Origin: Pocillopora damicornis
Lineage: Eukaryota
DNA length: 64,000 nt
Assembly: GCF_003704095.1 (NCBI RefSeq)
Contig: NW_020843402.1
Span: 1,116,001 to 1,180,000 of the forward strand
Direction of reading: 5' to 3'
In this document: positions 1 through 60,041 of the stretch, in pieces
Position numbering within the stretch: the first letter of the stretch is position 1
Layout: the number at the start of each line of letters is the position of its first letter
Position numbers and translations under genes: made by a program
The notes under the pieces: model-generated
The model's database searches: none
What the model saw: only the letters and a program-made list of their open reading frames with translations
What the model was told of the DNA's origin: nothing

Positions 1-3000
1 TTAGAGGCTGTTGACTGTGTCAGTTTGAAGAGCATAAGGAAATTCCACGCTAAAAATATTTTCGGAGAAGTCAGGACCAACGGATGCGGATCTTAGGAAA
101 GTACCGCCCCCTTTCCAATTCCTTTTTTTTTTCCTTTTTTTTTCTTTCCTTGTTTGATCAAGTATTGTTTGGTTTTTAAAAAGGCGCCTTAAAATCGACG
201 AAAACCTCAAAATCTGTTACAGCGATCAGAATATGAATGTTGACCCCCATGGCGTTCACTGAGTTTTCTCAACTGACTTCTTTTTTCGTTCGTGTTCCTC
301 TCAAAAAAATATATAAATAATATATTCATATGATGACTCAACAAATAGTTGATGGGAAGAGGGTGGTATTCGCTATGATTTCATTCATAAACTTACTCCG
401 TCAGGACCAGGTAGTCCACGCAAACACTTGTATATTATCCCACAATTTTTCAAAAAAAAACAAAACAAAACAAACAAACAAATAACTTTACCCAATGAAA
501 TGAGAATAAAAACGGAACATATAAGTTAGGCAATGCTTTGATAACTTCGGTTGTTTCAAGATTTTACACTGCGTTAAATCCACGGTTTTAAATTAACAAG
601 TACGGGAATATATAAACATTTGTGAGAATGTTATTAAAATATAGGAGGCATTCCGTGCTCGGTATTTTTATATTTGTTCATTTTATACAGGATGTTTACC
701 CAAGACATAATGTTCTGTTGGCGGCAACTGTTAGCCGCAAACAACTTGTCACATCCGGAAAATACAAGTTATGGCTCGCTTGCGGCGCGAATCCTGGAGA
801 GCTTTTTTAATTTTATATTAACATGTTTTATTGGTTCCGGAAATGAAGTTTCAACTACTGACGATCTTTTCACGATAAAGAAGGAACCCTCAACGCGTTT
901 TTTTTATTTGCGAGGCAAGCATTATCTGAATTCATAGCTTGGAAATATTTCATCACGCAGAGCAGGTTAGTATTTGATTATCAGTGGAGTTGTCGCTTCA
1001 CCAAAGGCAAGCGGCGTGTGTATTTACACCTCCTCACGACAGATTGAATTTGAAATTTTGTGACACGTTTTGAATCTTAAAAGATTTCAGCTAAACATCT
1101 TGGGTCTGTTTTATAACAATCCGTGTTTGTCGTCTGTATCCTTATTCACCTTAGGTTGGTTAGTGCCACTCTTAACTGTTTTTCTATTCTGCCTAACTGA
1201 TCATGATTTTGTTTTTCTTGTTTACTTAAACTTCCTATAAGTTGAGAGCAGTACTATAAATCGCTCAACTCTGTAAATCGTAATTTAGAAGCTCAGGTAT
1301 TTGGGTAATTTGCCAACCAAGAGTCTGACCCAATGACTCATTTTTTTTATTATCATTATTTTTTTCCGTGTCGTTGTTAGGTTTAAGAGATCCACTTACA
1401 GAGACTGCAATATTCAAGACGTTTTGTCTTTTGCACTGCTCAGTTAGAAAACAGTTGCTTAGTTTCGGTATGAGCTATGTAGAGACGTAGAAGCCCGAAT
1501 TTCTTGCCGAATCTCTTTGTGAACTACTGAGTGAGGAGCAGGAGGATTTATTTTAGACTTTACGACATAACATGATACGAACGATTTTGAAATACTAAGG
1601 AAGGAAGGACGCCCTCGATCCTGCTTGAAAGATTGAAATAACTGACCTTTTCTCAAAGTTATTATTTTTTTATCAAAACAAATCAAATTTAGTGACTAAT
1701 ATTGAAAGCTCACAGTCACTGAGGTTTTTGAAAACTTTTAATTTTTTATCGCAACAAACTCAGCAAGGATTTTCCTAACTGACCTAGCTTTCTAAATAAA
1801 GCGTATGATAGCAGTCTAATAAGCTACTTGAATTGATTACGAAGGATTCAGAAAACATGTAAAACAATCTATAGTTATCGTTAATTGATTTTTTACCTGT
1901 ATCAAAACAATTTAATTCAAATCGAGCCATTTCAGTTCATCTTACCGCCAGATTCCTTCAATAACGAGGCTATGATCTAAATCTTAATAGACAATTTCCA
2001 TTTTGCTCTAAATGTGCGTTCATCAATCATGTCAAATTTAGGTATTAAGAGATTAAAAATTCGTTTTTTAAGCGCAACCCCGCAAAGCTAATCCCAAAAG
2101 TAAGCAACAATTACTGCTCACAACCTCAATTGGAATGACATCCTTTTGTCAAATTTGATTTTAAAATGTGGTACTTGCACTTAAACAAAGCATCGCCATT
2201 AAAAACTCATAAAAAAAAATCTGTACGCGGCGCCAAACTTCCTAACAACTTGATGTCGTTTTGAACGCCTTCACTCGTGTACCCTTTATTCACTTTGAAT
2301 TTGTAAAACAATAGCTAATGAGCTCTCTAACCCGCTACTAATAAAGTGATGAAAAGCATAGAGGCTTTGATAAGCTTTCGTTCGTTCAAACCGCGGTTGT
2401 CAGATCCTTTGGAATGTGCGCTTGATAGCGACAAGAGCCAACCGACTGGCTTCAACTTATCACATTCGTATCGCTACCAGATTGATGACTATCTCAACCT
2501 TGTAAGTTTTTACCGCTGTATTTTTAAGCTTAAACCTTAACTCGATATCTATGTTCTCTGAGGTCTGGTTTGGATTATTTGCTCGTTTCTAGAGCGTACG
2601 ACCCCAAACAGTCCTTCTCAAAGACAAACATGTGGAGAACACATTTGTCTTACTGGCTTCACATATCAACCGACTCGAATGCTATTTTAATCTCAATAGC
2701 GAGTTAAACTTCGATCTATTTGTCATTATCTCGCAAGTTTCGATCGTTTCCAAACCCATAGGAGATGTTATTTTAATTGTTTTTATTTCTGAAGATTATT
2801 TAGTAATCACTTCCTCTACAAATAAACACAAAACATTCCAGTGCAATTTTCACAGTTTCCATTTCCACAGTACCTCGACGTTTGTCATTCAAAAATATTA
2901 CTTATAAATTTGCGCTTGTTCCTCACGTAAAGACTTCAGGGAACATCGTTTAGCTTACCTCTACAAGCACAAAACACTTTCCAGTTTTATTACTCGATTC

Positions 3001-12981: not shown

Positions 12982-15900
12982 ATGGTTAAAGGAACCGTCG
13001 GGAAACCGAAAGTCAGAATTCGAACGCTACTATGGACGTTTGTGTGTTGTTGTCTGGTAATCAACTCTGCTTCAGCTCAACAATACGTATTTCAAGTTCA
13101 AGAAGAATTAGCACCTGGAGCTCCTGTTGGGACCATTAATACTTCACAAGGAGTAACATATTCATTTGAAGGAAATCCATCGCGGTTTACGCTTAATTCT
13201 CAAACCGGTGCCATAAGTACAACATCTCGGATCGATCGAGAGACATTGAGCAAAAATCCGATTACTTTGCAAGTTCGTTCGTCGTCCTCGGCAACACTTA
13301 TCAACGTGCTTGTACATGTTGGCGATATCAATGACAATTCGCCAGAGTTTTCTGCTTCAGTTTATCCAGTTAATTTTTGGGAAAATGTTGTGGTTGGAAC
13401 CAAGTCTTCGTTAGTATCAGCGACTGACAAGGACGCTGGACAAAATGCCAACATAGACTATGCCATTGTGTCCGGCAACGAAGCTGGGAAATTCAAACTC
13501 GGTAGGAATTATACCGAATGCAATGACTCCCTGTTGTGTATAATCACACAAGGAAAACTTGATCGTGAGGATGTAGCTTTTTACGAGTTGAACATCTCTG
13601 CCAGCGATCGAGGAAGACCTTCGCTGCATGCTTATTGTTTGTTGAATATTACAATTTTGGATTTAAATGACAACAAACCTGTGTTTACAAGTAACTTGTA
13701 CAATGCTACCTTGGATGAAAACACTCCAGCTGGCGTAGAGATTTTATCTGTGACTGCAACAGACTTGGATCAGGGCTTAAATGGTGAAATAATGTATTAT
13801 TTCGTGAACGATGTAGACAATCTGAACAATGATGCAAGCATGTTTAAATTAAACGCCACCTCTGGAGTCATTAGGACACTCCACCATCTCGACTACGAAC
13901 TTAAAAAGTCATATATCTTCGAAGTTTTCGCCAGAGACAAACCTGAAGAAGGACAGGCGAATGTAAACAAGACAACAGTACATATCTTTATACAGGATGT
14001 CAACGAAAACAAACCAACAATACAAATATATTATGTGAATGCTCAAGTTTCTGAGGCGTCTGAAAACGGCACAGAAATTGCAACTGTCGTTGTGCGAGAT
14101 CTTGATAATCCTTACCCTTCAAATGACCAATTTGAGATGTCTCTTTCAAACACAAATGGTAGTTTTGCTTTGAGCTTTGTCTTTTCTGCAAACCGCATAG
14201 GCTCCATGTACAAACTACAGACCAAGGGTTCTTTAGATCGTGAAATGTTTGCAACTTACAATATCACAGTGACTGCGAAAGACAAAGGAAAACCTGTTCT
14301 TTCTGCATCTGCTCATGTGCTGGTGTCTGTTGTTGATGTGAATGATGGAGTACCAACATTTCCCAAGTTGAATTACCAAGCATCAATTAGTGAAATTGCA
14401 CAGAATGGAAGTACAGTTTACTCTGTTCAAGCCTCAGATTCTGATGGAGGCTCTAATGGTCAGATTTCTTACTCGATTCTAAGCGGTAATTCTTTGAATT
14501 GGTTTCAAATTGACTCACTCTCAGGTCTTATCAGCACTGCTGCGCCTCTGGATAGAGAAGTTTCCAAGCAGATTTCCCTGACTGTGCTCGCCAAGGACAG
14601 TGGATCACCACCTCTTAATAGCAGCACAGTGGTAACTGTAACAATTAAGGATGTGAATGATAACAAGCCAACTTTTTCTAGGAGTGCTTACTTTGAAAAA
14701 CTAGCCGAGAATTTAAGGCCAGGAACTGTTATTATGACATTGAATGCAACAGATGATGACAGTGGTGATAATGGGAATGTGACATACAAAATTGATTCTG
14801 CTTCTCAACAAGTACTGAATACCTTCAGCCTTAATCCTCTCACTGGTGTTCTTACTACCAAAGTTAGACTTGATCGGGAGATGAAAAGCTCCTATACTAT
14901 TCCGGTGAAGGCTTCTGATCATGGAAATCCTCCACTGTCATCATCAACTTTAATACATTTGAATGTTGATGATGATAATGATAATCATCCAGTATTTTAT
15001 CCTGTTACTTATGTGGAAACTGTGTTGTCTAATGCACAGTCCACAGTTATCACTCAGGTGATGGCAACAGATGCTGATGATGGAACAAATGCACAGATTA
15101 TCTATGCCATTGCAGCTGGGGATAATGGTAATTTCTCCATAAATAGCTCCACAGGGGAGATTATATCATCACCACCTCTCACCAAAGGTTTTTACAAGCT
15201 GAACATCACTGCTCAAGACTTGGGCGGTCTTTATGCAAAAACTTCAGCCACTGTTGAGATCACTGTGCAGGTACAATCTGATGACCCTCTTAAATTTGAG
15301 CACAGCATCTACAATTTTTCAGTACATGAGAATGTCCCTTCTGGGACGTATGTTGGAAAAGTTATTGCTACGACAAAAAACAACAACAACAGCAGCATTC
15401 AGTACGAAATCATTTCTGGTGATCCACAACACCATTTCACTGTGGATGGTTCTGGTGGAGTTATTATGGTCAATGGACTTTTGGACAGAGAAAAGAAAGC
15501 AAACTATGTCTTAAGTGTGATTGCAAAAGCCTATCTCTTGTCAGCAACCACATCTGTGGAGATAGACATTCTGGACAGAAACGACAACCAGCCAGTATTC
15601 AAATCTCCTAGTGCTCAAGTGACCATTGATGCTAACTGGTCAGTGAACAAACAAATTTATGTGGCATCTGCTACTGATGAAGATGCTGGTCTGAATGGAT
15701 TGGTTCGTTATCAGTTGACTGCTGATGGTAATGGACTCTTCAAGGTTAATGCAACATCAGGGGTGATCTCCCTGTCTAAGAAGATAACCAACATTGATGA
15801 TTCTGATTATGTTGTGCAAGGGTTTGCATCTGATGCAGGAGCTCCTCCACTTCGCTCTCCTTTCATGTTAACTGTGAAGATTATCACTTATCATCCCCCA

Positions 15901-24900: not shown

Positions 24901-25128
24901 AATAACATCACTATTGAGTTTTCTACCTCCAAGAGCGAAGGGCTGTTACTCTACAACTCGGACGGAAAGTACAGCTTGGATTCCGATTTCATCGCCATAC
25001 AGATCCTCCGTGGTAAGATACAGATGTCGTTTAATCTCGGGTATTCCAGGAGCGCAGTTGTGGTGGAAGCTGGTCAGTCTGTGGACGACGGACAATGGCA
25101 CACAGTCACAATTATAAGAAACAGGAAG
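12982..25128 (+). CDS. FAT4: Fat4-like giant first coding exon (cadherin repeats, EGFs, start of LamG1)
   Basis: Part of the 4082-aa ORF. Donor AAG|GTATGT at 25128/25129, after which the ORF loses LamG similarity. Confidence 0.92.
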
Positions 25129-28100
25129 GTATGTGCCGGTTGCTTGAGTGCTCAAAATATACTTTCTCCTCACTATACCAGTACATTGAACCGAAGACAT
25201 GTGCTGAGAATAACCCAAATAATCAACTAAGACCCCAAGACGTATGGCTGATGAGATGACAAAGTCTCAGCACTAATTTATTGTCAATATGTGGCGATCA
25301 GTCAAGAGAAATTATGTTTTAGTGTTGGACCTGCGAACGACCACAGTTTGCCTTTTTCATTTCCAACATTGTGTGCGAAACAAATTTCACCATTCAGAGA
25401 AAAATCTATTCGCAGATCACCTGATGGTGTCAGTACGATAATTATAAAAGAACTCTTTTTAAGAAGCGCGAGAAATTCGTGATTCTACAGGAGACAAAGA
25501 AACACTCCTCGCGCGCTCATTCTTCTTGTGTGTTTGCGTTGTAGTTAACATGTTTAAACCGACATTTGTTTAAACCCATCTAGGAAGGTAAAGTCACTGT
25601 TGATTCGTCCCGCACAGTGTCCGTGGTTTCCGATGGACAACTAGAGTAAGTATTTCTAAAGGAAAAATTTCGTAGAAAGAGATTGTACGAGCATGCGGTG
25701 CTTATTGAAGATTTAAGTTAATCTCTGAGAATATATTTGGCCACAAGCTTAGCGAATGCTCGTCATAAACGCAATGGCCTGTCGGTCAGCGGTATGGACT
25801 CCGAGTCGAGAGTTCAAGGTTCGAGATCTGGCTCGGTCATGGTGTTTTGTTATTTGGGAAAACAGTTAACTATTACAGTGCCTCCCTCCGCGCAGGAGTG
25901 TAACTGGGTACCAGCAAAATGTTAGAGCAGCCTGACAAAATACAGGGGGAGGGGTGGGGGTAACCTGCGGTGGAGTGGCATCCAGGGGGGAGCATTAATA
26001 TTCTTAGTTGCTCCTTGTTACAGAAACCAGGATAAACTGCGGTTGGAAGGTCATTTGGCTTAATTGCAGACATTTTTATCGGATTTTAACTAGTGATCTT
26101 TTTGCCTCGAAGGAAACTAGACTTGAACAACTCGCCGTTGTTTCTTGGTGGTATAAAGGACTTCGATCAGTCCCTGGATCACCCGGGCAAACACATTCAG
26201 ACTGATGATTTTCTTGGCTGTATGCGGAATGTGTTCATCAACGGCAAGAAACTGGAGCCAAGTGCCGCCACGGAGTCCGGTGGCATCATTGACAGCTGTC
26301 CGCGGTTAGACCAGTGTGCTGCAAACCCATGCGAGAATGGGGGGACGTGTGTTGATTATTGGTTTGAGTACGTGTGTGAATGTCCGAAAGGATTTAGTGG
26401 AAGGAACTGCGAAAAAGGTTGGTGTGATTGTTCTGGAAAAGAATCTCTATTACGCAATTAACGAAAACACAAAAAAATGTGAATTTTCGAGTGGTTAGTA
26501 TTTTCTTAGTTTTTGTCTCCTACGCTACCATTTTCAGTGCCTCTCTAGGGCTAAGCCTCACTGTATGGTAGGGGCTTTCCTTACAGTTATTGGAAACCCA
26601 GTTCATCCTGGCGATTATTCGTGAAACTACAATCCGACACAATTGTGGAAATATTTTCGCAAGGCAGTGAGAGAAAGGAAAAGTTATTGTTAGTTCATTG
26701 TTTATCGATTTCAATCGTTCGTTTTTCTTCTTTATTACAGTGGTACAACCAGTGAAATTTAGCTCGGATAGCTTCCTAGTGCTGCAGTTTAAGGACAGCT
26801 ACCGTCGCGAGCAGCAGCGAAAAGAAAAAGAAGGAATCTCCTCTCGGAGAAGAAGAACAGTGTCCTCCAACCAGGAACAGTTTTCATTCAGATTCCGCAC
26901 TCGGAACATGAACAGCCTTCTCCTTCTCGCCAGTGATTCAACCACGATTGTGTCCTCTGGCTACACTGTGTTGGAGGTAAGCTAATTTTCTATCGGCAAT
27001 GACTTTGATTGAACATTTTTTTATTTTTCCCCATTGAATGAGAACTTTCTAACAAGGTACCTAACTCCAATTAGCATAAAAGCCGCCTACACCTATGTCA
27101 TACACTGTTATGCGCTTGTTGCCGTTTAAATTTCTTCGTCCGTAGTTCGCAATGAAGTTCTTTCGTACCTGTTTAGAGTTACTAATCATTTTTTTTAACT
27201 AATAATAAGTTTCCTTTTTAAAGAGCTCGTTTGAAATCACTTCTCCGGTATCCTCCCATGCTGGCAATTGACTGCGTCCCCACTGTTTCGCATAGCTTCT
27301 GGTCGTGTTTTTATATGAAAGGCAGCAGTTTGAAGATCGTGAGTTATAGGTTTGCGAGTTCTTCCACGGTACTACGTTTTTTTTATAAATGGCGGCGTCC
27401 CTGCAGTAATTTTTTTTTTAGCAAAGTACAGCATTGCTTTGTTTACTTCTTGCTTAAAAACACTCAGCCCTTATTTACGCCGATGTTTTTTGTTACTTTC
27501 TTGAAGATTAAATCTGGAAATCTCAAGTACAGCTTCGGAAATGGGGGTAACATCGCAAGCTTTGAAGTCAAATCTTCCACTGTTTCTGATGGCGAATGGC
27601 ATAATCTTACTGTCCTTCATGTTGATAAGAGCGTGACGGTCACGCTAGACGGTAATATTCATCCAAAGTCATTCGAAAGTTCAGCACACGATTTTCTTGG
27701 TAAGAACATAAGAATCTGGTTCCTTGGTGGTTACGATTCGTCTATGTCGGGCTTGAACTTGGCAAATTTCTCCGGTTGCATGGAAGATCTAAACATCGAC
27801 GGTTTACACGTGTCGTTCTCGGGACCCAACAAGTTCGCTGCAATTTCTTCCCAAGGCGGTTCAGTTGGCGAGGGGTGCGATGGCGGCGGTTTCTGCTCCT
27901 CTGTCATCTGCACAGACTCCAGTAAACCTTACTGCTTCGAAGAATGGGAACTAGCAACCTGTATCAGCGACGAGCAGTGTAAACCGAATCCGTGCGGGGG
28001 GAATGGGACCTGCCAGCCGCAGAAGGACGGTAACTACACTTGTATGTGCAACGGAGAGATCGGAGCTTGCACTGCAACCCCAGGTGAAAGAGGCAGAGAT

Positions 28101-30707: not shown

Positions 30708-33700
30708 TCACCAATTTTCGCTATTTTTTAAGCCCACATTTAGACTGATGAAATATCTCAATTCTGATAATCCTGTCTTTTCTGTAGAACTGAAAAATAA
30801 ATTGGAAGTTGTTAACCTTCTACACCTTAACTTCAGTATCTAAATTCCCCATACTCCTCTCTTAAATTTCCTTTAATTGCAAAGGATAATTCATGTCGCA
30901 ATCCAAGCTTCTTAGGTTGCAGATCATTTCCTTTATTCTCATGATCAAAATTAACATTTCAGCAGTGTCACTGTAAGGAGAAAGTAGATGCTGGTTATTC
31001 TTAGGATTTGAAGGGTTAATTCACTCCCCCGATCCATGGAGTTGTGTCTGCAAATGACTGGTTGCCTACTTGTAAAAATGAGCTCTCAAAAGAGGTGGTG
31101 GATGCTCGATGGCTCTGGTCTCAGAAATCTAGATTGTCTGCAAAAAGATTTCCATTCTATTAAAAAAAAAACTTTTATTCTGCAAAAATACTTTAATCCC
31201 ACAAACAGACTTTCATAAGAGAGTGGTAAACCAAGTCAACCTACTTGCCTATGAAATAATCATTTGTTTTCATTACTGTTCTGTTGCATGAGTTTCATGA
31301 AAATGAAGACAGCAGAACCAAAAAAATAAAAAGCAGATTTGCCTCTTGTAGCTCATCTACTGATGACTCCTACTTAAACTCTAAAGGCAACAGCACAACC
31401 TTCCAACATCTTACCACTGCAGTAATTGTATTTTTTCATATGTCATCTCACCTTACAGCAAATACATGGGGAAAGCAATTGTCTAGTGAAAACTTTTCTT
31501 TGATTTTGTAGATTTCTTCAATCACTGCCTGGTGTCTTGGCTTGGGAAGCTTGTCCATTTTTGTCAAAATCACCTAAACAACAATGTTACAAGAGCTATG
31601 AAAATTTAAAAATTAAAAATATGACACACTATATAAAACAAACTACCATTTCCCACAACTGTAAATATCATTGGCCATGCCCTTATTCTTTAAATGTTTG
31701 GCTGTCAATCAAAATAATCTTTGGTCCATTGTTGAATCTATTACATAAACAGCAGTGAGCTAACTTACTTGAAAAGGACCACCAAACTCTCCCATCATTT
31801 CAAATGCTATGAGATCACTTTTTTTCACCCCAACTTTCCCATCAATCAGAAGACAAACACTTCTTAACCTGAAAATAAAATTGCAAGTTACCAGAGGGCT
31901 GGATTTATTTCACCTATATCTTAAAGTTTAACCCTTTAACTCCCAAGATCTGATTGTTAATTCTCCCCTGTAGCTGCTACACATTTCCCAATAAATTAGT
32001 TTTTACAATATGGTGTTGGATCAACATAACTTTCATCTGATAAGTTTGAGTATTCTTATTACCTGTTTGCTTGATAATCTATGGATATTATAGGGAGAAG
32101 TAAAATGTCAATCACTTATGGGACTTGAAGGGGTAAGTTGTTCTGTGTATCTATGCATTGACTGCAAAATCATTCAGGAAGCCAGAAGATCAAATCCCTA
32201 CAAGAAAACCTGTTTTTCTTGTCAGTAACAGATGTTTAAAATCATTTGCTTTACTCAAAATTAAACTTTTCTCCTGTTCTATCTCTGCACAGGACAATTT
32301 TAACCTGGACATTTATACAATTAGAAAGCAATGACCAAGCCTAACAGAGATTCCCCCTTAGAAGATAGACTAATGTCTAGCTGTGCAGATAGACTAATAT
32401 CTATCTGCACAGGACAATTTTAACCTGGACATTTATACAATTAGAAAGCAATGACCAAGCTCAACAGAGAGTCCACCTTAGAAGATAGACTAATATCAAG
32501 CTTTGAAATTGGAAACAAATCATTGTTTGAATTATCTCAACCCTTTACACCCTAACATCAGTATGCATATTCTCCATACTGTTCTCTATACATTTCTTAA
32601 GGTGCTGACAAGGAGAATTTGTTTAACAATCAAGAGCTCCTATAGTTGGTGATCATTTTCTTTATTCTCATGATCTTAAATGAATGATTCAGTAGTATTA
32701 TTGTAGGGAGAAACTAGATGCTGGTCACTCTAAGGGTTTAAATGGTTAATAAAATCTGAATGTTCCTTTTTTCACCCGCTTGTGATGAGTTGTTAAGCAC
32801 ACATTGCTCTTACAAAGTTTACACAGGTCAAGAGAAGTAAACCCCAAGAACCATTGATTCCCAACAGTTGATATTACATGCCAATTATCTCATTTAACTT
32901 ACTCTTTTCCAGCTCGTTCTCTCAGGTAAGTCTCTGCAACTTTGACAAAGTGTTCAGTTCCTCGCTTGCTTCCAAGACCCTCCACATATCCATAGCCAGG
33001 AAGATCCACTAGGTACATTTTTGAATTGATGTTGAAAAAGTTAACAAGTCTTGTGTGTCCCTAGAGGGATTAGAGGGATTTAATGTTTAAAACAGAAGTA
33101 ATAGCACAAGAAGCCACCAAGGCCTACAGTATTTAGACCTCTTTAATTAGCAGCTAGCAATACCTACTAAAGGTAGGGTGTGGAATTGTTCCCTTACTTT
33201 TGTAGATGCTGAATCAATACTCATGCTAACACCCTCAGAAAACAGACAGTGAATATATAAGTAGGTTTAAAAAGACATACTGGCTTCTTTGATGTCTTCA
33301 CAAACTTTTTCCTGTTCAAGATTGCATTTATGAGAGATGATTTACCAACACTTGTTCTTCCAATAAAAGCAACCTGTTGGCACATGAAATAAAACAAGAG
33401 TTATTTATATACTAGTTGTAAAATAAGTTAGATTATTTAAATAAAATGGTTCAACTATTTCCTGCTAAGATTTGGAATGGACTGGCAATCATCAATTTCA
33501 TCTTCTTCCCCTGCCCCCCCCCCCCCCCCCCCCCCACCCTTCCAACCCTAGCCACAAAGAAAAGACTCAATTCCCCGCTTTCCAAGATTACAGACCAAGA
33601 TATTTACTTATAATTTGTTATTTAATGAACAGCTGTTGCAAGACGTTAGTTGCAATATGATTGATTTGTGGCCTAAATAAATAAGAAGATCTGATCGAGT

Positions 33701-34072: not shown

Positions 34073-37000
34073 ATGGCGGCTATCGTTGTCCCATCCAATT
34101 TAGTAAAGAATTGGGAAAAATCGGGGAAAGATGAAGTGTAAGTCTGTTCATTTCCTTTGAAATGCCATTTTATATTCAGTCTGTTTGAATCGTTAATATT
34201 TTTTTGCAGGTTTCGTTTGTGCAAGAACTGCGTGCGAGGCAAAGATGGAGAGCTTCTGGAACTAAACTTTCAATGCGGAGAGAATGGTACGTAGGTGAAC
34301 TTGTCAATTATATTTAAATTCTTGTGATGATTTCTAAATTGATTGTCATTTTTACTTTAGATCTTAAACGCGTGATCTATGAAGTATTTAACCATGTTAT
34401 TCAAGGGGATCTAAGACAGGAAGATGCTATACCGCTCCTGTCAGATGTCACGGTGAGGATCACATTTATTCTTTGATTATTCGTTCGATTTGTTACTTCC
34501 AATTCTGAGTTGAATTTATGCTCAAACGTATTTCGATTAAATGTCCAGCTTTGGTTCAGAAGACTTTTGGAGGTCCACAACTTGTGTTTTCATAATTTTC
34601 CGATCGCGCTTTTCTAATTAAATTCTGATTATGTTAGTTGCGTTCAAAACAAAATATCAGCGCATCTTTGTATCTCCTTAGATTGACTAGTTTCCCAGGA
34701 AACTATACTTTTTGGTTTTGTGTCAGGGGCAAGTGAAACGCTTTGTTTATGACAGATATATTTACCCTTTTCGCCTCAACTTCAGAGTGAATATTCTCCG
34801 TAAATTTCCTATGGCATCGACAGGGAGAATTTAGTTAAAAGCCAAGAGTTCCTTCAGTTGGCAATTGTTTCTTTCATTCTTGCGACCTTAATGTTTGATT
34901 AAGCAGTTAGTCCATTTGGACAGATTAGATGCTAGTCGCTCACAGGGGTTGATGGATTAAGTGGTGTCTGAGAATTTTGAAAGCAGACATTGTTCATGCA
35001 TTAGCCCTTCACCAGAGCACAAAGGAACCTGGTAATACTTTGATTTACGTTTAACTCTCTAACTCCAAGAACTGATTAACATGTAATTTCTCCCTATACT
35101 ATCAATACTTTATCCAGCAAACAGTTATTAAGAATACCCAACCTTATTAAATAGAAGTTGTTACTTGATCAAACATCAAATTCTCTGAACTAATCTACAA
35201 GGACATGCACAGCAGCAATAGGGGAGAATTAATGATCAGATCATGAGGTTAATGCTTTACATAACAGCTCTGGCATAATCAAGGTTTTGCCTTGGCTATT
35301 GTTTTTATTTATATTTTGTTTTTATTTTTCAGGAAGTCCATTCAGGATGTTCATCACTGCTAGCTGACCTGATATGTATCTTGGGTACTCAAGCTCTATC
35401 CAATTAATTGCTGTTGCTTTACGTTAAAATTTGTTTAATTATTCTGTCCAATGTCATGTGCTGACTGCAGTGTTGTCAGGAGCACAGGTTTTCATGATTG
35501 TATGTATCCTATGGTTCCTGGTGTATTCACAATCCTATAGATGTGGAGAGTCAGTGCACAGAGGACAAGCCCAGCAGGGAGAGGTTCTTGTCTCTGGTCG
35601 GAGCTTGCGTGGTATGTTAAGAAGCCAAAAGGCAGTGATGTTGCTCAAAGAAATTATTTTCGTTTTTCAAGAAATTCTTTGCTCTAGTAACAGGAGTGTC
35701 AGTTAGAGCCAGCAAGTAGAGAAATTCTTGGTCTATGTCCAGCAAAATTGCTGCTTATATATAAGGCCATCCAAGGGGAAAAATTTGGGGGCTTCCCTCA
35801 GTACATCAAGAAATTGAGATTGCTCTAGCACAGTGATTTCAAGTAAAGACTTAAATACAATTTAATTTTTTAAATAAAGGGGGTAAGGTTCTAAAGGAAC
35901 TGACAGTGGTGCATCATTGGTGGGGTAGTAGAACACAATTATTGATAATCATTATTGATAATGTAAATTAGCTATTTTAAAGAGTTTCAAAGCTGAAGCC
36001 TCGAGCATTAGCCTTTAGTCAGCTCTGATGAGGGCTAACACTTGAAACATAGGCTTTAGAAACTCTTTATGGTGGCTAATCTATATTGTCAACTCAGTTG
36101 ATAAAACCAAATCATCTGATTTTTTTGTTGTGATAAATTACTACATTGTACATTGTTACAAAGAAACCAAAAAAAACTCTGAAATAGTGGAAGACCTCTT
36201 TTTCCTTGGGAGAAATTCAAAATATTATTGATCATTCCAATGATACTGAAGAATTAAAAAATATATAGATACAGTAAATGTTATTTGAACACATCTAGAT
36301 GTTTTCTTTTTTTTATCTACATCACTGTCTGTAGGGATTGGTTCCAGAAGTTCTGCTCAAGGAGAGGCTTGAAGTGGAGACATTGGACTCACTAGGAATC
36401 ATACAGTCAACAAAGGCTTTTAATCAGAAATATGTCAGGACCAAGACTAAACTATTGTAAGTATATGCTGAAGGTCAACTTTTCAGTCTTATAAAATATT
36501 TGATTTTCATGGTTAAGCAGTTAAGATAACATACCAGTGGTTTTCAATTGAAAAGCATATTCCAATAAGCTTAAGTATCCATAAGCTTTACTTTTTATTT
36601 GTCTTAATGAATGGTATTTGAAACATGGCTGTGCTCTCCCTTTACTTGATTTATGTCTCAGCAATCACTCACTGTTTAGCAGCTTTCTAAACTTGCATCT
36701 GTCAGACAGGCTGATAAAAGCTGACACAGTAGTGTGAGTCATGTGGTGTGTGTGCATTACAGGTTTCACTGAGTAGCAAAATGTTATGTTTACTTTGTAA
36801 ATTGCCAATTGTTAGAGAACAACCCTGCTGAGTGTTTTCTAGTTGACCATTATTGGTTCTTTTTAAGTATATGTTGTATCTGAACTGAGGCTGGCAATTA
36901 AGTGGATATCTGGTAGAGGACCACTGATTCTTTTTAGGCCTCAAAGGTGTCAGTGTACTCTAGTGATTTGGTATTTTTCATGCAGATTTCTTTACTTCTG

Positions 37001-40000
37001 TTGTTGTTATTTTCGTTTCCTTAGCTATAAGCAGCAGAAATTTAATCTTGTGAGAGAGGAGAGTGAGGGCTATGCCAAACTGGTGACAGAACTGGGACAA
37101 GAAATCAGTGGACATGTCACCAGTGAGAGAGTTCTGGAGAACATCAAGTCTCTAATAGGTCAGGATAGCTGTTAGATATCAAACAAGTGCAGAACTGTCA
37201 TTGAGAGCTGGAAGATGTCTGAAATGGATGGCTAGTCTGCCATCTTTTGCTAGATACTCTCACCTAACTTTATCTTAATTGCTAATGAAAACTTGTGTAT
37301 TTCATGACGATGTTCATCATTGTTAACATATATTGTAGTCTTGTTTGTAAAATTTGAATTGAAACCATGACATCAATTAATATTATGATTTTTTTTTTTC
37401 AGGGCGGTTCAATCTTGATCCAAACAAAACTCTTGATGTGTTACTGGACTCGTTTGAATGCCGCATTGATGTAGAGGACTTCTTTCTTCCTCTTTTGAAA
37501 TCATACATGGAGAAATGTGAATTCACTGCCCTCTGTCACATCATAGGCTTTAAATTCCAGTTTTATAAGGTATGGATTTTTGAGAGAAAAGGAGTTTTAA
37601 GATTGACTCTTAGGATGAAATGGGAATTTTTCTCTAATATTGTTTTTGTGACTTTCTTTTGTTTTAGGAGCAGCCTGACTTGCCCACCCCTCCATCACTT
37701 TTCCATTTGACAGCTCTGCTTATAAAGCATGGTCTACTCAACTTGGATGACCTTTATCTTTATGTAAGTAAAAAAAAAACCCAACAGCATACAACAGAAA
37801 AGTATGACATAATTTAAAGTGTCTTTTTATGTTATTTTTTAAACACTTTTTCATTCATAAAAGGGAGAGTGAGGTGTGCTCACTTTTCCCAAATTGTGGC
37901 CAAATTTGACTGGCCTGTTAAATAGCTGCAAAGATGGTACTCATGTTAGTGTTTGCAAACTTAATGTGGTCAATCACTGAACCACGTATGGCACATGACT
38001 ACAGGTGCAAAGTTGGACAAAATAGATTAGACATGACCAATGCAATAATACTCTGGGAAGGAGGGAGGTGCCGGTTTAAGGAGGGGTGGGGGGAGCTCTT
38101 GTTTTAAAGTTTTGGCAGATATAAGATCTGCTTATTCAGTTAAAGTATTGAATGGGTGCTCATTGAAGGGTGTTGCTTATGGAAGTCAAGGGGCTAGCTC
38201 AAGGATGTCCCATGCTTTTTTTAATTTGACAGCTACCAGACATGGTTCATAGGGGATCACTTTAGCTTTACTTCACATTTCCAGGGAGTAGTTATGTAGA
38301 GCTCTTGCAAGTAAATAGATGTTAGAAGTTCATTTTTCTTTTTTCAGCTCAGTCCCTCAGATGCAGACATTGTCACCAGCAACACAACAAGAATGGATGA
38401 AGCCAAACAGGAAGCAAGGAAGATGAACATGGCTGTCTTAGCAGTAAGTCTTTCTCAATTTTGAATTTCCAGTGTGCCTGTGTATGGAATGCTGTACTAG
38501 ATGATAGATGGAGTACAATGGGTTGTTTGCATACAGGGGACCTGTTCTTATGTTGTACACTTAGAGCCTATATCCTTACATGTAAACTTCGAGAAGCTAT
38601 TGATATGTATTTTCTCCCCACAATTTCATAATAATATCCAGGAAGAAGGTAAAGAGAGAACAGAGATGTATCATGTGAATGATTTTGTCTGGTCAAAACA
38701 CCAAACTCTCATAACTACAGCTTTAGTTATGAAGGGAATTTATTGAAGCTTTATGGGAGAATTTATCTTTCATAGATGTGTCTTTCCAAATATGTTAATT
38801 AGGTTTTCTATCTGCAATACTCACATGTACATTTGATGCTATGTATTTTTTATTGCAGGAAATTGCTGCAGCAAATAATGAAGAAGGCAACAAGGAAAAT
38901 AAAGAAAATGATAAACCTACAATTGTATGTTTTTTTACTCTTGTTAAGGAAGATAAAATAATAATATTTTATATTGTATTGGGTTATTGTCATTTATCCA
39001 GATCTTTAAATTCACCAGGTTCCAGATAATCAGAAGTTTGGTTTGTGTGAAGCACTGTTGATGGTAGGTGCGTGGAATAATGCTTGTTCAATTCTGGACA
39101 GATTACCTCAGTTTGCTGCTGTGTCCCATCCCCCCATAGCCAAGGGATTATGCAAGCTTATTCATACAACCATTGAACCTCTGTATCGAAGGTGAGTTCA
39201 AAACTATTTAGGGTATGGTTCTTCTCTTGTGTGTTTGATTGTTTATCACATACAGGGTGAAGTTACTGAATGCCTATTAGCTGAGACAGAGGGCATTTTT
39301 TTCTTAATCATGAGAGCACTTTGTCTTCATCCCTTTGTGACTTAGGCATGTTTGGGAAAACTTTGAAAATATGCATGAAATTAATCCTTAATTGCCTGAG
39401 GGCCCATGTGATTATATATAAAAATCAAACAATCAAGTTTCCTTGCAACTTTTCTTAAGGATTTGAATCTTAAAATGCTTCTTAAGTTTGCTGGTTTTAA
39501 AGAGTTGTTGACAGAGACTTGATCTTTCTTCAGACATGCTTCCAAGGCAGCTAGAGGACGACCTTATGCGCCTGTTCCAGGGGGGCCTCCACAATGCAAA
39601 GTGTTCACTGATCTTCCAGACTATGTGTTTTCCATGTTGCTTCATCTGGGCCCTCATTTGTCCACTGATCCAATCCTAATGGCAAAAATCCTGAGGATCA
39701 GTAAAGGGTTCATGAAAGATGTAAGTAAAGGATTTTTAAATGTATTGACACTCAAGATCTTGAGTGATTCTTTTAGCTTCTATTCATTTCTTTTAAGTAA
39801 GTTGAAGCAGTATCTCAGATTGCAAGTTTGGGGTATCCAGGAAAAGTTAGTGCTACATGTATTAGGACACAGAGAACAGACACAGGTCTTCTATTAGAAA
39901 TTCTACCTTAAATTTGAGATAATGGAAAGGTTGAGGTACACACCAAATCTGATTTTCATTTCTACTATCTAGTCTCTATGAAATTTTTGCAGATCAATTT

Positions 40001-43000
40001 TAGGAATTTGGCATTATATCAGGAAAACACTTGAAAACTGTCAACTTTCTCTTCTCACCACCTGTTTACTTTTTGATTTATCTATATTGGTTATTGAAGT
40101 GATTATGCATTGTTTGTATTAGTCAGTTACTGTTGCTCTGTAAATTCCAAAGTATTTAAGACAAACGCTCAGGCTGATTTTATGGTTACTCTGACAAAAG
40201 TAATGAAAATCTAAGCCAATTTATGTTATGTTTCCTCAATGATGGTTAATCAAAATCATTGAGTGTAATCATGATAGCAAAACATGGCTGATGAGGAAAC
40301 AACAGAGATGATATTTCTGTTTGGGACACAGAATAAATATTTTAAATCAGAAAATTTGACTGGAAATGTTTCCTTTTGTGTTGAAAGCATCCAAATGTGT
40401 TTGAGGAAAAGGAGCAGAATTCAGCTCAGGTTTGTTTGTGTTTATTATTGGTAGTCTTAATAGTGATTAACTGTAGAGTTCTGAAAATTTCAATTATTAT
40501 TAGTTCTCACTATTCAATTGTGGTTGTGTTCATAGAATTAATTATTGGCAATAGTAGTTTCATTTCCATAGCCTTTTGCCCCTTGAGAGTGACTGGCATC
40601 TAATTTCTCCCTACAATGTAACCCCCAAAACACACATTAAAGTCATGAGATGAAAAAGGAAATTATCACCAACCAAAGAAGTTCTTGATTGTTAAACAAA
40701 TTCTCCTTGTCATCACCTTAAGAAATGTACAGAGAACAGTATGGAGAATATGCATGCTGATGTGAGGTTGTATTGGGTTAATCAAAGCTCTTCTCTTTTC
40801 TGTGTCAATTAATCCTTCCATCCCCTCTAGAAGTTGATTTCTAGTTTATGTAGTTTGTTGCTGTGCTTTCTTGCACTGATTCATGGCTTAAATTCCTTAG
40901 ATCTGTCACATACTGATCTTGTGAAGAATTTTCGTCATCTCCAGGAGTTAAATTGTTCAGATTGTGCTGATGTACTTACTTGACTTGATCTGTAGGTTGA
41001 GAAAGTCTGGTGTGGATTTTTGACCCTAATGGATGAAGTCCTGTTGCCATCAATTTCATTATTGGAATGTAACTCCAGTTTGGCTGAAGAACTTTGGGCC
41101 ATGTTGTGTCGTTTTCCGTATGAGCTCAGGTATATCATGTGTGTCTTACCCAGGATTTAGGACCCACAGATCTAATAGAGTGCAAAATTAAAGTCTAACC
41201 CTGCTGTTATTATCCTATAAAGATTGTCCCTGGTAATGTTAAGCATGATAGGTCACGGTTTTTCTTTAGCAGAATGCAGATAATACTGTCAGGAGACTAA
41301 CTTTGGTCTTTGAGTGACTTGTATCACTTCCCCATATGTGGAAGCTTATTAGCACTGGGTACTTCAAATTTCTGACACCCCAGCCTTCATAAACATTGTG
41401 GTTCTTGTGGTTGCACAGTTTTGTCTATGGATTCCACTCTAGAGAATTCTCAAGGTTATTTAATTCTATTAGGGAAGTGTAGCTCAATTACATGAGAGTT
41501 ATTGATGTCCTCTTCTCATAGAGGAACTCACATTAACTTTCAATGCTGCAAACTTCCAAGAGAAACTGTGGATTTTCTGATGCTGTGGCTGGAGAAATTG
41601 CCTCTTCATTCGTTCATCCACAAACAGTCATCTTATTAAAATGACTTGTAATTTAACATGTTGAAAATAAAATAGCTATTATTTCATGCTCGTTTTTTTC
41701 TAAACAAAATTCAATTATGTCTCTTGTGTCAGGTATCGCCTCTATGGCCAGTGGAAAAATGAATCTTACAGCAACCATCCTAAAATGGTTGTAGCAAAAG
41801 CAGCCACAATAAAGAGAGCAAAATACATCACTAAGTAAGTTACTGTCAGTGTAGTTTCTGAACTTGATGGAAGGAGTTGCCAGAGGCTAGACTTTTAAAT
41901 AATTTTTATGTTGTCATTGCTGTCCTCAGGAGGTTAACTAAAGAAAATGTCAAGCCCTCTGGAAGGCAGATTGGCAAATTGAGTCACAGCAATCCAGGCA
42001 TATTGTTTGAATATGTAAGTTTGCAGTAATTTAGATATAATGTGCTCTACAAGTATGCAGAAATGAAATTAAGATGTTTCTTCGCTTGTGTTTCATCATT
42101 GATGCAGTGTTTTCATTAGAGCTGCAAAATGTTTGTACAGTTGCAAATGAGTAAAGGGGGAAAGGTTCTTAAGAAACTGAGAAGCTGTGGTGCTGTGTCA
42201 GTGGGAGAGTATAACAGGGTAATTTAGTGTTGTCAGCCAAGTTATAACTTGGTATTCACTCTCATGAAGGGCTAATGCTCAAAATCTTAATGGTGGCCAA
42301 TTTATGTTATCAGCTCTGACTGCCATGCCTCCTACATTGGTGAGACTGGCAGAAACCTCACAACTAGACTGACTGAACACAAATGAGCAGCAAGGAAAGG
42401 CACTGTCAACAATCACATTACTGAACATCACCGACTTACAAACCACACTATTGACTGGGACTCTGCGCAATGCCAAACCTACAGCACCAACTACTTTCAA
42501 TGACTGACCCTGGAAAACTGGTTTACTAACTTGGAACAGACTCCCCTAAACAGGTGTCAACCATTACCGGCACCATACAAACGACTCATCCACGACATTA
42601 ACATTACAAACAAACCGAACAGAGCGATCTAACTTCACTAACGGATCCAAACCAACCAATCACGACTGACCTATGCCACTAGAGTCTTACAGCCAATAAC
42701 ATCATGGCAAAACTGACCAATCAGTGTACACAAACCGGACTAAGTACATTCGACTGACAGCAACCTTTCACTTGACTCTGATGATGACTTCCGCTCAGGT
42801 TGTCAAAATGTCAGTCACCACTACTGGCAACAGTCCTTCTCAGGACTTCACTCACCTGGACAATCAAACTACACTATTACATTATCAACTCAGTTGATAC
42901 ACTAAATTACTCAGCAAATGAGTAACCCTAGATGTGCCTGTCTTTTTTGTTTTGCTGTCAATTTTTAGTTCTGTTTACAGGTGTGAGGTTTGGTGACTGT

Positions 43001-46000
43001 GTGGCAAGCACCTTGCCCACTCTTTGCCTTCTTAGAACAATTGTTGTGATCTCATGACCCCATTATTCATCCACAGCTCTTGTCACAAATTCAGAAGTAT
43101 GATAACTTTATTGGGCCTGTGGTGGATTCACTGAAGTACCTCACTCCTTTGGCGTATGATGTTTTAGCTTGTATCCTAACCGAAAGAGGAATTTCATTGT
43201 CTTTATTCTCCCACTTTTTGCATAAGGTCATAAAGATTCTCTCACTTAAATGCCTTGTCAGGGCATAGCTGTACATGCTACGGAAACAACAGAATTTCTA
43301 CATGTATGTCATCTATATTGTAGTTAAAATGGCAGACCAGCATATATGGTAGCTTTAATGGAACAGTAGGTTAAATGTTGGCAAGTTTGCAGTTGCTATT
43401 GCTCTTTTCCTTAACAAGATGACAGATTGTATCATTGAGGCTTTGGCAAATCCTGAAAGAGAAAGGCTAAAACATGAAGACACTAACATCTCTGAGTGGC
43501 TCAAAAGTAAGGTCCATGTTATTGTAACTTTCAACACCGTTATTTTTCACATGGTTTGTGATATTTACAATGTTGAGTTCAGTGGCCTGAGGATCTAACT
43601 TCCCATATCGTAAGTGGAAAGGAAGAGGGAAGTGCAATTTGTAGTTTTGACAGACATTATGAAGGAAAATGCAAGCAGGTAGCTGAGTAGAAATCCTTAA
43701 TTAATCAGCTGGGAAATACTTTCTCGATGTTGGCCTGCGAATCAGCTTTCCTGGGGTAGGGGCAGCTGGGTTGGAGAGAGCTTCCACACAGGCTAAACTG
43801 GTGTACAACTGAATTCTTCATTGTTTTGTTTCAGGTCTAGCTGTATTTTGCGGTACTGTATTCCGCAAGTATTCCATCGAGCTTACTGGTCTTCTGCAGT
43901 ATGTGGCCAATCAGCTCAAAGCTGGAAAAAGTTTTGATTTGCTTGTGTTGAAGGAAGTTGTTCAGAAAATGTCTGGAATAGAAATATCAGAGGAGGTGAC
44001 AGCAGCGCAACTTGAAGCTTTGTCTGGTGGCGAACTTCTGAGGGCTGAGGTAAATATGTTTTTTATTGTCTGCTCTGTGAGGTAACATAAGCCAGTAGTT
44101 AGTGTATTGGACTCCAGATTGGAGATTGTGGCTCAAGTCCTGGTTGAGTCTTTGTGTTGTGCTCCAGAAGAAGACAGTTTTCTCTCACAGTGCCTCTTTC
44201 TAATTAGAAGTACAAATGACAACTAACAAACAATGTTGTGGTGAAGACTACATGTACATTTAGCAGGCCTTTCAGGGAGAGTGATAATACCCCTTGTTGC
44301 CACATGCCATGAAGACTAAGATAAGGGCAGTAACCAGTAACCCTTTACACCCTAGCATCAGTATGCATATTCTCCATACTGTTCTCAAAATATTTCCCAA
44401 GATGCTAATGAGGAGAATTTGTTTAAAAATTAAGAGCCTCTTTAGTTGGAGATCATTTCCTTTATTCTCATGACCTTAATGTTTGATTCAGAGCTGATAT
44501 TGTAGGGAGAAATAAGATGCTAATCACTCTTAGAGGTTTAAGGAATTAAGGATAATGATGCTTTTTAACATCAATTGTAGGCAAGTCTCTACTAACTTTT
44601 TCTTCACTTTATTCATGTATGTTGACAAGGTTTACGGTAACATAGCCAACAGTTTTGTCAATGTTTTTCTTCAGGGTGGATACTTTGGCCAGATTAGAAA
44701 CACCAAGAAATCTTCCCAGAGGTTGAGAGACACTCTCATCGAGGGAAAGTTAGATTTGCCGCTCTGCTTGCTCATGGCTCAACAGAGGAATGGCATTGTG
44801 TTTTTTGAAGATCCTGATAGACATCTGAAGCTTGTTGGAAAGCTCTATGACCAGGTATGATTGGAAGTTTCCATTGCACTGTGGGTTGCAAATCCAACAA
44901 ACATAAATTTCCGTGAATGTCTCTGCCTAGTGGAACTATTCAGTTTAAAACGGTGCAGGTGTTCTTTGTTGTTCTCGTGAACCTTCAAGCAAATTTTGAA
45001 CGTGGAATCTGCTCGCACCTCTAAACCTGGTACTGGTAAAATTTGCATTTAATTCCAGTCTTTATAGGAAACGAATACTGTACAAATATCTTCGGTGGTA
45101 ATTAAATAATCTTACGGTTTTTTTTGTCGGTACTTTTTTGCGTGAAATAAGCTGAAAGTAGCTAGCTAAAGATGACAGACCAACTAGAAGTTTTGGCCGC
45201 CTAACGACTCCTATGGACAACTCTGTACGAGTGCTGTGTTTTCAATATCTTTTACTTGAACTGTAGAAATTCTTTTGTTTTCTAGTGTCAAGACACCTTA
45301 GTACAGTTCGGTGGCTTTCTCGCCTCGCAGTTAACTGCTGAAGAGTACGAATCACATGTACCGTCCTTGGATGTTTTAGGCCAAAGTTATCATCTAACAC
45401 CTGACGTGGCATTCTTTCTGTCTAGACCTATGTTTGTCCATCAGATAGATGTGAGTATTGAAAAAAAAGATGTCTTTTTTTTTCTGAAAAATGATATTGA
45501 AGTTAAGATCTCAATTCTAAGATATTGAACAAAGGCACACTTTTTTATTGTTTTGTTCTGTACTCACCTCCTAGATTAAGTACGAGGAAGCAAAGAAAGC
45601 AATAGCTGCCAAAGGAAAACAGCTTCAACAAAAAGTGAGTGGGTAAACCAGAGCAAAGTAAAGCTTTGTTGAGATGTTATATGACTGACTCCGCGAGCTG
45701 ATAAGAAAGCGTTACTCCTGCGCAGCGATTGGCTATCCAATCCAACTGTGCTTATGCGGATATTGGTCAGTCTTTTCCAGAAAAAGCCGGATTTCAGTCA
45801 GGCGCGCAATAAACCCCTTAATGATCAGGTTTGTTGAACGTTGGCCTCGTTCTGCGTGCAGTTATGGACGGTAAAACCTTGGGCTCTGATGCACGTGCAT
45901 ATGACAGTGGAGATTTTTATCGCCATTATGGTAGTTAAGAGAAGTGACGGGGCAATCGAAATTGAAAGGAGCAGTGCTGCGGTTTATGTTGGCTGGGCGT

Positions 46001-57486: not shown

Positions 57487-57885
57487 ATGCTTATGCCCAA
57501 ATCGATCTTATCTCATCGAAAGCGTCGTAAAGAGTCAGAAGAAGATGGTAAGAGTAACATGGGAAGGTAAGAGATTGTCGGCATTACCTTAATGACCGAT
57601 GCAAAGATATACTAATATGAATTGTTCAATAAACATGCACAATATATACAAAACTGTTTTTTTAGGTATGACCTCCCTTCAAAATAAACAAAAACGTGTC
57701 TGCAACACAAAATTAGTATAACATCTTGATGATCGAACTACTTGAAGCTGTTAACAGGGTAATTTGGTATTATCAACTAAGAAGCTGACGTTTTGAACGT
57801 TAGCCCTTCGTCAGAGCTAACGCTCGAAACGTCAGCTTTCAAACTCTTGACGGTCGCCAATTTGTTATCAACTCAGTTGATTATA

Positions 57886-57929
<44 letters not shown>

Positions 57930-60041
57930 ACTCTACTCAGCTGTTAGTTTTGACAGTGAAAGCTTCATAAAATCAATATTGATAAAATTTAAAACTTACG
58001 CTTCCGTTATGCTTTTCCGCGGCCTCGCTGTCATACCTCCAGTACGAGAACACAAGATCATAATAAAGTATTGTCATTGAATGACCCTTGAGGGCCTCTT
58101 TACGCAATTTATCTTATCGTTAACCGTAAACGTTGACTGAGGTGAGTTGAATAACTACAACTCAGGGAAATTGCTCCTTTCATCTCTGTTCAGAAGGCGC
58201 AAACTTTACTGCATAAACGGACAATATTTGGAGATCACTGACGAAGGACGAGTGAAGGGAACGAGAAACTACCACAGTCCACATGGTAAGAGATTGCAGG
58301 CTCTCTTGTTCTCCTAGCTGCCCTCATTTGCACAACTCTGTTGCGAATTAAGTACTCGGGCCATGAATCCGAGCGGAAAAAATGAGGTTCCGTAACTTTC
58401 ACAACGAACCTATAAAACGTGTTCTGTTAGATATATATTATATCTGTGGGTTCAAATTTCGATTCAAAGAAACTTTTGAATTTAGCGGGCCGTACAATGA
58501 AATACGACGCGTTACATTGACCAATCACCGCCCGCGTACTAAAGGAGAGATCTGATAGTTCTGTTTCTTTCAATTAGTTGTACAAGCAGGTTTTATGATC
58601 GGAACAATATATGGTATTTCTTCTTTTTTTTAATTTTTCAGTCGTGCTAGAGCTAGTTCCAGTGGCAAGAGACCTTATACATATTAGAGGAGTCCATACG
58701 GGGTTTTATCTCGCAGTGAACAAATGCGGAGAGGTGTACACCACGGTAAGTCATGGCAGGTTCTCTGCTCTTGTCGTTACTTAGATTTTATTGCATCAGT
58801 ATTAATGAACAATCAGGCTGCGAAATATGCGAGGCGAAGATGAGCTTCATTTATTGATAATTGTGCGATTTTACACTTGCGGACGACGCGCTTTAAATCA
58901 TGCAGCCACTCAATTCTCGTATCCATGCTCACCCGTCCACCTGATATGCTTTCACTATTCTCACTCTCGGCGAAATAACCTTTCGAAAACTGTAAAATTT
59001 CCAAAAAAAGGATCGCTTTTATAACTTGTTAGTTAGACTCGTACATCTCATGCGCTTATTTGAATTATCAGGCCAAGAATTTTTAGGGAAAACTTGTCGA
59101 ACGCTTTCCAAAAGTATCAGTTTACATTTGTCCTCAGACTTAATCTATTCACCAAAGCTCATCGTTTTTCTCGAACTATGCTCTCGTAATAAACTCTCAT
59201 TTCTCCGAACTGGTAATATGTCCGTGGACAAACTTTGGAGCCTATTTTCCGCGGCAGCCCATCTAATACTAATTTTAACATCATAAGGATGAGGACAACG
59301 CGTTTTAATTCGTTGCAATTTTCCTCTGTTAGTTTCCAGCAATAGTTGTAGTTAACTGTGTGTACAGTTCCCTTTCATGTTCTCATTGTGAATTAAGTTA
59401 TTTAACAATTATTCGCGACAATTGTTTTTTAATACGATTGCTCATGTGCTGTCGAATTCTGTTGTAAACATCTGCGAGTAAAGGAAGCAGAGCGCATAGT
59501 TTGTTACAATTGTGTTGATTATTCGTATCAAGATTAGCAAGCAGTATAAACAGGTTCATTTCATTAAATCAGCAAAAGTTCACTATCTCTTTTTTTGAAA
59601 AGTTTTCCGCCAAACCCAGAAGCATCTTTTGTGCTCTTCGCAACTGAATTTTCTCCTGTCGCGTTTATCAATTCCTCAGAAACATTGACCAAACGCGAGG
59701 CACTCATTTGAAATTTAGTCCTCGACCAATCAGATCAGAGCGCGGGCATCTCTTAATTTTACTAAAAGCTGGATGCTATGACAATTAATGTCTCTTATCT
59801 GTGTTGTTCTTAAAAACGAATTACTTTCCCTTTTTCACTGACATAGATGATGAAAAACGAAGAGTGTATCTTCAGAGAAAAACTAACAAGAAACTTCTAC
59901 GACAGTTACTGTTCCCACAAATACAGCCGTGATAACTTAGTGCTGGGACTCATGAAAATTGGGGCATCAGTTACCACCACAAGAAGCGAGCGCTTTCGAA
60001 AAGAACATGAGGGACAATTCATAACAATGATTACTTTCTAA
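57487..60041 (+). CDS. Fibroblast growth factor, FGF1/2-like, no signal peptide. Exons: 57487-57547, 58166-58285, 58642-58745, 59847-60041
   Basis: RRRKLYCINGQYLEITDEGRVKGT; IHIRGVHTGFYLAVNKCGEVY; EECIFREKLTRNFYDSYCSHKY. The middle exon is 104 nt, the typical FGF core exon size. The first coding exon and the 58166 acceptor are less certain. A possible non-coding exon ends at 56705 (AAG|GTAAGC). Confidence 0.82.
57750..57940. mobile_element. Short palindromic interspersed repeat (same family), in FGF intron 1
   Basis: AAGCTGACGTTTTGAACGTTAGC-loop-GCTAACGCTCGAAACGTCAGCTT hairpin and TTATCAACTCAGTTGAT. ACTCTCCCACCGACGCAGCACCACAGTTTCTT is the reverse complement of the left arm of the 42170-42210 copy. 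Confidence 0.7.

Follow-up and report, generated by a model that had tools for sequence, protein, structure and literature searches.

The foldback at positions 35872-36116 of the window (the whole 64,000-nucleotide stretch of Pocillopora damicornis DNA that was analysed) is probably what is left of two short 3'-end copies of a Neptune-type Penelope-like retrotransposon (PLE) that were inserted head to head and have since decayed; it likely arose in a single event at the insertion site rather than as a mobile unit in its own right. The object itself is ordinary, a dead piece of a known class of retrotransposon. What is new from the coral genome are the counts behind a rule by which two kinds of arm are paired, the spacing from a TATA box, and a small class of arms that begin at family position +28, the hammerhead cut site.

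The foldback is real: it spans 245 bases, belongs to an abundant repeat family, scores 54 when one arm is compared with the other (mean 18.1 and maximum 33 in 1000 shuffles), and matches itself at 71% over 140 nt (E 2e-16). The inverted arrangement proposed in the preliminary description was thus borne out, the letters quoted there for 36021-36055 are present as given, and the related copies placed at 42149-42912 and 57750-57940 are relatives of the family. Family positions below are counted from the hammerhead C3 in the natural copy L058.

35872..36022, minus strand: tail-bearing arm, the pLTR 3' unit between its tail end (family position +149) and the hammerhead C3 at 36022
36022..36116, plus strand: tail-less arm, covering the pLTR unit between stem I (-3) and about +92
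36025..36051, plus strand: decayed minimal type I hammerhead core with CUGAUGA, weak stem II, GAAA, and AUA replacing GUC
35863..35871, plus strand: possible left TSD, 9 nt with one mismatch, T-rich, partner 36117-36125
36117..36125, plus strand: possible right TSD, partner of 35863..35871
35613..36334, plus strand: likely host intron (GT..AG) of a THOC2-like gene, holding the element; splice dinucleotides, open frames on both sides, THOC2_N matches from 37020 on
57754..57938, tail-less arm on the minus strand (internal deletion) and tail arm on the plus strand: second head-to-head copy, 8-nt TSD 57746-57753 / 57939-57946
42155..42913, tail arm on the minus strand and tail-less arm on the plus strand: third copy, 12-nt TSD 42143-42154 / 42914-42925, interrupted by another PLE
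42317..42881, plus strand: nested 5'-truncated PLE of another family, with a broken GIY-YIG end, a hammerhead-like motif at 42778-42814 and a 10-nt TSD with one mismatch

When aligned with L058, 118 of 156 bases of the tail-bearing arm and 84 of 109 bases of the tail-less arm are identical, and the two arms overlap by one base (36022). The copy belongs to an older subfamily and is 28-36% diverged from the family; the TSD-like repeat around it scores 8, where the threshold used was 9, and no tandem array was found at it. The copy also occurs in a contig from another sample (X19 record 9). The 8-nt TSD of the second copy was read from the letters, having been missed by the TSD script, and the PLE at 42317-42881 sits inside the third copy.

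The copy likely lies in an intron of the THOC2-like gene, and the family copies at 35.9 and 42.2 kb are likely both intronic there. A Pfam scan of the three short candidate exons flanking 35613..36334 gave no match. RNA contigs overlie the element region, but they are mixed with repeats from elsewhere and are uninformative on this copy. From 37020 to 41139 and further on, the plus strand has THOC2_N matches in Pfam and spliced RNA contigs.

The parent of the arms was recognised in long copies. In L058, L122 and L124 the unit directly follows an open reading frame (ORF) with reverse transcriptase (RT) motifs, a CxxxxCxxC linker and GIY-YIG, and in L058, L122 and others it is placed after the stop codon; because it follows the stop codon of the RT/GIY-YIG ORF, the unit is the pLTR. 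A 432-aa frame in L124 matched RVT_1 (E 1.1e-6) and GIY-YIG (E 0.0026), both slightly under the Pfam cut-offs, and CxxxxCxxC and CxxC are present in the translations of long copies. From these motifs and a general likeness, the type is probably Neptune. In the available text of PMC8557442, CxxxxCxxC-type linker motifs define the Neptune/Nematis type of endonuclease-positive PLE. Each arm is the 3' end of a PLE whose RT and GIY-YIG copies occur in the same genome, and consists of pLTR sequence that includes a minimal type I hammerhead. A Penelope origin and production by Penelope RT, as had been suggested, agree with the unit adjoining the RT and GIY-YIG ORF in long copies. The same unit was found in 47 of 80 loci among relatives on metagenome contigs. 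In several long ORF-bearing copies (L123, L131, L137, L138, L285, L303 and L311) the 5' end carries a short arm in inverted orientation, which in most of them belongs to the other end class.

The family was surveyed in 234 Mb of genome, and 40 of 1456 first-look DNA-search candidates were scored. Exact searches found 436 copies of the 34-nt hammerhead core, together with 616 (younger subfamily) and 161 (older subfamily) copies of a downstream motif, against 0 for the reversed-pattern controls; these are numbers of arms rather than of insertions, and decayed copies, the one at 35872-36116 among them, escape such searches. Four samples (best BLAST hits, the hammerhead pattern and two downstream patterns) yielded 222 insertions after 8 duplicate rows were dropped, comprising 130 inverted insertions and 92 single arms. 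The inverted share was 62 of 114 in the two samples chosen without the hammerhead.

The 3' ends of the arms fall into two groups, at about +92 and +149 (63 of 192 at +90..99 and 101 of 192 at +140..149), and relatives on other contigs have the same two ends (27 of 76 at +80..99 and 24 of 76 at +140..149). A tail-bearing arm is paired with a tail-less arm in 97 of the 98 inverted insertions with both ends classed, while two tails occur in none and two tail-less arms in one; the other 32 of the 130 had one unclassable arm and so lie outside this count. If arms had been drawn at the ratio seen in solo arms (57:29), about 44 mixed pairs and about 43 two-tail pairs would be expected. L284 appears to be another pair of tail-less arms. 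Among young inverted copies, 36 of 39 reached a TSD score of at least 9, as did 7 of 400 mismatched flank pairs used as the control; for single arms the figures were 15 of 32, with two rows dropped, and 4 of 400. The TSDs of inverted insertions are mostly 9-17 nt long and free in sequence.

The abundance of these palindromes, their similar sizes and the occurrence of one junction 12 times would suit a mobile non-autonomous unit of SINE-, retrozyme- or MITE-like kind, copied whole from a few masters. We regard such whole-unit copying as quite improbable, since the 97 tail/tail-less pairs hold 78 different sets of junction coordinates. The self-standing non-autonomous element of the preliminary description accordingly gives way to arms that are 5'-truncated ends of an autonomous element. 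Even the commonest junction (12 of 97 copies, with a 5-bp stem and a 7-nt loop) has either arm as the longer one (9 and 3 copies), occurs in both polarities with different lineage variants, and is also found in contigs of another organism (L348, L349). Single arms make up 92 of the 222 insertions, the ends of the palindrome are unequal, and its TSDs are long and variable. In a MITE the two tips are matching terminal inverted repeats and the TSD is short and fixed, whereas one coral tip has about 55 extra nt, the TSDs are mostly 9-17 nt and the junction is variable, so that the MITE once named as the counter-explanation fails as well. Repeat-annotation pipelines could misfile such palindromes as MITEs. 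The non-LTR retrozymes, in the portions of PMC7229834 and bioRxiv 10.64898/2026.07.22.740005 considered here, resemble the coral element in being non-coding, hammerhead-bearing, PLE-related and present in corals. They form head-to-tail tandems with canonical efficient hammerheads and circular RNAs, whereas the coral element is an inverted pair with a minimal core. The suggestion of a retrozyme does not fit the family copies examined, which are single or inverted, with no tandem arrays and no head-to-tail tandem units.

The paired ends probably arose by two primings, a reading that draws on the near-strict pairing of tail and tail-less ends, the TSDs, the variable junctions, the variants shared by the arms and the stops behind a TATA box. 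The endonuclease would nick both target strands, and each 3' end would prime reverse transcription on uncleaved RNA of the element, the first from the tail site and the second from the tail-less site. Both cDNAs would run to the 5' end of the RNA, at the pLTR transcription start; one cDNA end would anneal or jump to the other via 0-7 nt of microhomology, and each cDNA would template the second strand of the other. In a bolder version, which we consider possible but less likely than not, the arms are double "strong-stop" products: the PLE RT-endonuclease would act as a dimer that uses each start site once on one TATA-begun RNA, and the +28 arms would be a genomic footprint of in vivo self-cleavage. 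If this were true, the start site, the cut site and both RT start sites would be mappable from DNA alone, and there would be in vivo self-cleavage by a minimal PLE hammerhead, which is unshown in the cited papers.

In LINE-1 twin priming, both target nicks prime on one RNA, which gives an inversion with microhomology at the joint. Twin priming joins adjacent parts of the RNA, whereas the coral arms both start near the same 3' point, and the sequence is therefore duplicated as a palindrome. In vitro work on Anolis Poseidon (PMC11167929, available in part) describes two internal RT start sites that bound the tail, cutting and extension of both strands, uncleaved RNA as the substrate, and a predicted dimer; hammerhead cleavage is not required. 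Poseidon belongs to another clade, and its start sites show no strand preference in that work, whereas one of each is used per insertion in the coral; the part consulted offers no explanation for inverted products.

Self-priming, or snap-back, in which one cDNA or antisense RNA would fold back and be copied into a palindrome, would explain the commonest junction with its short stem and loop (12 of 97) and the variants shared by the two arms. Such sharing was found for 30 of 61 variants in 33 young pairs (null mean 6.5) and for 48 of 168 in 23 older pairs (16.1), each with 5000 permutations; later gene conversion inside the hairpin could be an alternative source. On a sense template, self-priming requires the tail arm to reach further 5'. 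The tail arm does so in 42 of the 97 pairs, but the tail-less arm does so in 38 (the two are equal in 17), including 3 of the 12 at the commonest junction. Fold-back of a single cDNA cannot give a further-reaching tail-less arm beside a tail arm, because the tail is absent from that cDNA, and long ORF-bearing arms occur with either 3' end. Self-priming, which has been proposed on an antisense template for the palindromes of rotifer Penelope elements (PMC3846280, in the part available), is therefore held to be unlikely here.

Several results count against two primings as well. One junction recurs in 12 of 97 copies, and 48 of 56 other arms are a closer match than the partner arm in the copy at 35872-36116. 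A pLTR located 5' of a full ORF turned up in none of 35 ORF-bearing loci and behind none of 129 tail ends, and the RNA beginning at the pLTR is thus a predicted one. No cap-G signature was found: 5 of 47 truncated arms have a G before the start.

The places at which the arms stop were consistent with a promoter in the pLTR. Among the 62 inverted copies from the samples chosen without the hammerhead, the further arm ends at -10..-3 in 38, at -20..-11 in 3, beyond -20 in 0 and at +25..+31 in 5; the count covers partners up to 70 nt apart, and 4 of the 97 pairs do pass -20. Over the whole genome the match reaches -7 in 369 arms but extends 5 nt beyond it in only 106, a drop that is partly due to point changes. 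A CCAAT box and a TATAAA box are located upstream in long copies. The TATAAA begins 31 nt before -7, which is a pyrimidine-purine step, and the spacing of 38 nt between TATA and C3 is kept in 9 of the 11 metagenome relatives that matched the search. A TATA spacing of 31 nt suits a polymerase II start site. Because most arms end about 31 nt downstream of the TATA box, we infer that the main 5' stop is the pLTR transcription start. The pLTR of Drosophila holds a promoter, which is TATA-less there (PMC2377424), and rotifer pLTRs have TATA and initiator motifs (PMC3846280), according to the available sections of these papers. A splice acceptor at -7 was considered and rejected, as no AG precedes -7.

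It is conceivable that two primings did take place and that the 5' hot spot is an RT stop at an RNA structure, or a microhomology trap, beside the hammerhead: the unit folds into a stable hairpin over -3..+30, short palindromes there give microhomology, and there is no cap G. However, an RT moving 3' to 5' would halt near +30, where the hairpin has its 3' foot, and not at -7. The -7 stop is shared by single arms, and neither the TATA spacing, which suits a start site, nor the lack of an AG before -7 favours such a trap, to which we give a low probability.

The cleavage site was rejected as the main 5' end, with 3 of 406 young arms at +28 by a strict pattern and 0 at +29. Arms beginning exactly at the cut site +28 do occur (L176, L231, L259, L272, L356, L358 and L360), and this class includes one single arm and one pair with four bases in both arms. 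In an unbiased walk, +28 was the end of 1 of 45 arms, and +26, +30 and +31 had likewise 1 each. The +28 arms are a weak hint of hammerhead cleavage in vivo; an RT stop at the hairpin foot, or microhomology at the palindromic AGCU, would also explain them. Short head-to-tail repeats of a unit were observed at some junctions (L042:594-760, L065:485-590, L092, L104 and L360), and in L042 and L065 the unit comprises 19 nt from the start of the hammerhead, while in the other three it is shorter. These repeats look as if the RT had slipped back and recopied, which recalls telomerase repeat addition.

The hammerhead motifs of the copy at 35872-36116 are decayed on both strands. In comparison with the intact family core, the plus-strand arm no longer has the extra A before stem II and shows a C-A mismatch at one of its four stem II pairs, its cleavage triplet is AUA where the family has GUC, and the ACGU palindrome required for a dimer stem III is broken; the minus-strand hammerhead is dead, with G8 and the GAAA box gone. 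The earlier statement that both catalytic boxes are intact was thus not confirmed for a working core. Stem II is weak, and the fourth pair of the 4-bp stem I borrows a base of the opposite arm. A minimal-hammerhead descriptor found no match on either strand of the whole window; it matched the intact core, in identical form, 140 times in family loci and 0 times in 20 shuffled windows. An Rfam search gave no hammerhead among its 6 matches at E<=5. The conserved core, stem I, stem II, NUH and the palindromic stem III are all present in the family core, which is almost invariant and leaves little power for covariation; one copy has a double change in stem II.

In folding predictions, the stem II pairing probability is 0.92 in a single unit and 0 in the foldback RNA, for the plus strand of the copy at 35872-36116 and, in a young perfect copy, for either strand. 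Any transcript of the foldback contains a single sense core. Cleavage by minimal motifs depends on a second copy in the same RNA, and a lone motif did not cleave in vitro (PMC4209133, in the part available). With its core buried in the hairpin and without the same-strand partner that the minimal class requires, each ribozyme is predicted to be a silent by-product, and the idea of a working ribozyme on each strand was not supported. A functional bidirectional ribozyme cassette, retained for the host gene or the element, would account for a core-like motif on each strand and for the copy in the contig of another sample (X19 record 9). Yet both cores are mutated at catalytic positions, stem II has a probability of 0, the divergence is 28-36%, and single minimal hammerheads are uncleaved in vitro in the same partial source (PMC4209133); we consider retention of this kind extremely improbable. 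Minimal hammerheads of other families were seen in the flanks of some loci (L030:396, and L060 and L314 on the minus strand).

The metazoan PLE minimal type I hammerheads in the accessible text of PMC4209133 share with the coral motif CUGANGA, an extra base before stem II, G10.1-C11.1 and a palindromic, loop-less stem III. The coral motif differs from them in a stem II of 4 bp, a stem I of 3 bp and the abutting of the two motifs, and the copy at 35872-36116 is decayed. Pairs of minimal hammerheads on opposite strands, 100-700 bp apart, are described in Schistosoma in that text, and more than 4000 minimal motifs are implied for another coral in the available part of PMC7229834.

Head-to-head, inverted, 5'-truncated pLTRs with a one-sided tail and a TSD were published for endonuclease-positive PLEs, as seen in the parts at hand of PMC8557442 (Fig. 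2), PMC3846280 and PMC2377424. The phrase "poorly described" in the preliminary description was therefore an overstatement, the layout being available in PMC8557442, PMC3846280 and PMC4209133. The coral insertions resemble the published units, so far as these sources cover them, in the inverted pLTR, the one-sided tail, the TSD, the TATA-like box in the pLTR and the heavy 5' truncation. They differ in that the arms are usually only 100-155 nt long and without ORF, the tail is about 55 nt (published, 30-40), the pairing of ends is near-strict, and the 5' ends pile up at one place. In the literature covered, no account was found of strict tail/tail-less pairing, of two-sided priming to a start site, or of the coral family; the family may already be included in the cnidarian hammerhead alignments that supplement PMC4209133 and PMC7229834. 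The PLE cycle is called undefined in the consulted part of PMC8557442. The coral insertions bear on how the inverted ends and tails of PLEs are formed: hundreds of near-identical short insertions give sharp predictions on end pairing, start-site stops and a minor cut-site class.

Other features of the window were noted. A 4095-codon open frame at 12943-25230, which we take to be a Fat-type protocadherin, holds cadherin repeats followed by EGF- and laminin-G-like parts, and its later exons extend to 29513. A further repeat of very high abundance is represented by pieces at 31927-32679 and 44443-44519 (summed contig depth above 10,000 in four runs), and tandem arrays with periods of 96 and 120 nt were observed at 10816-11090 and 32284-32502, respectively.
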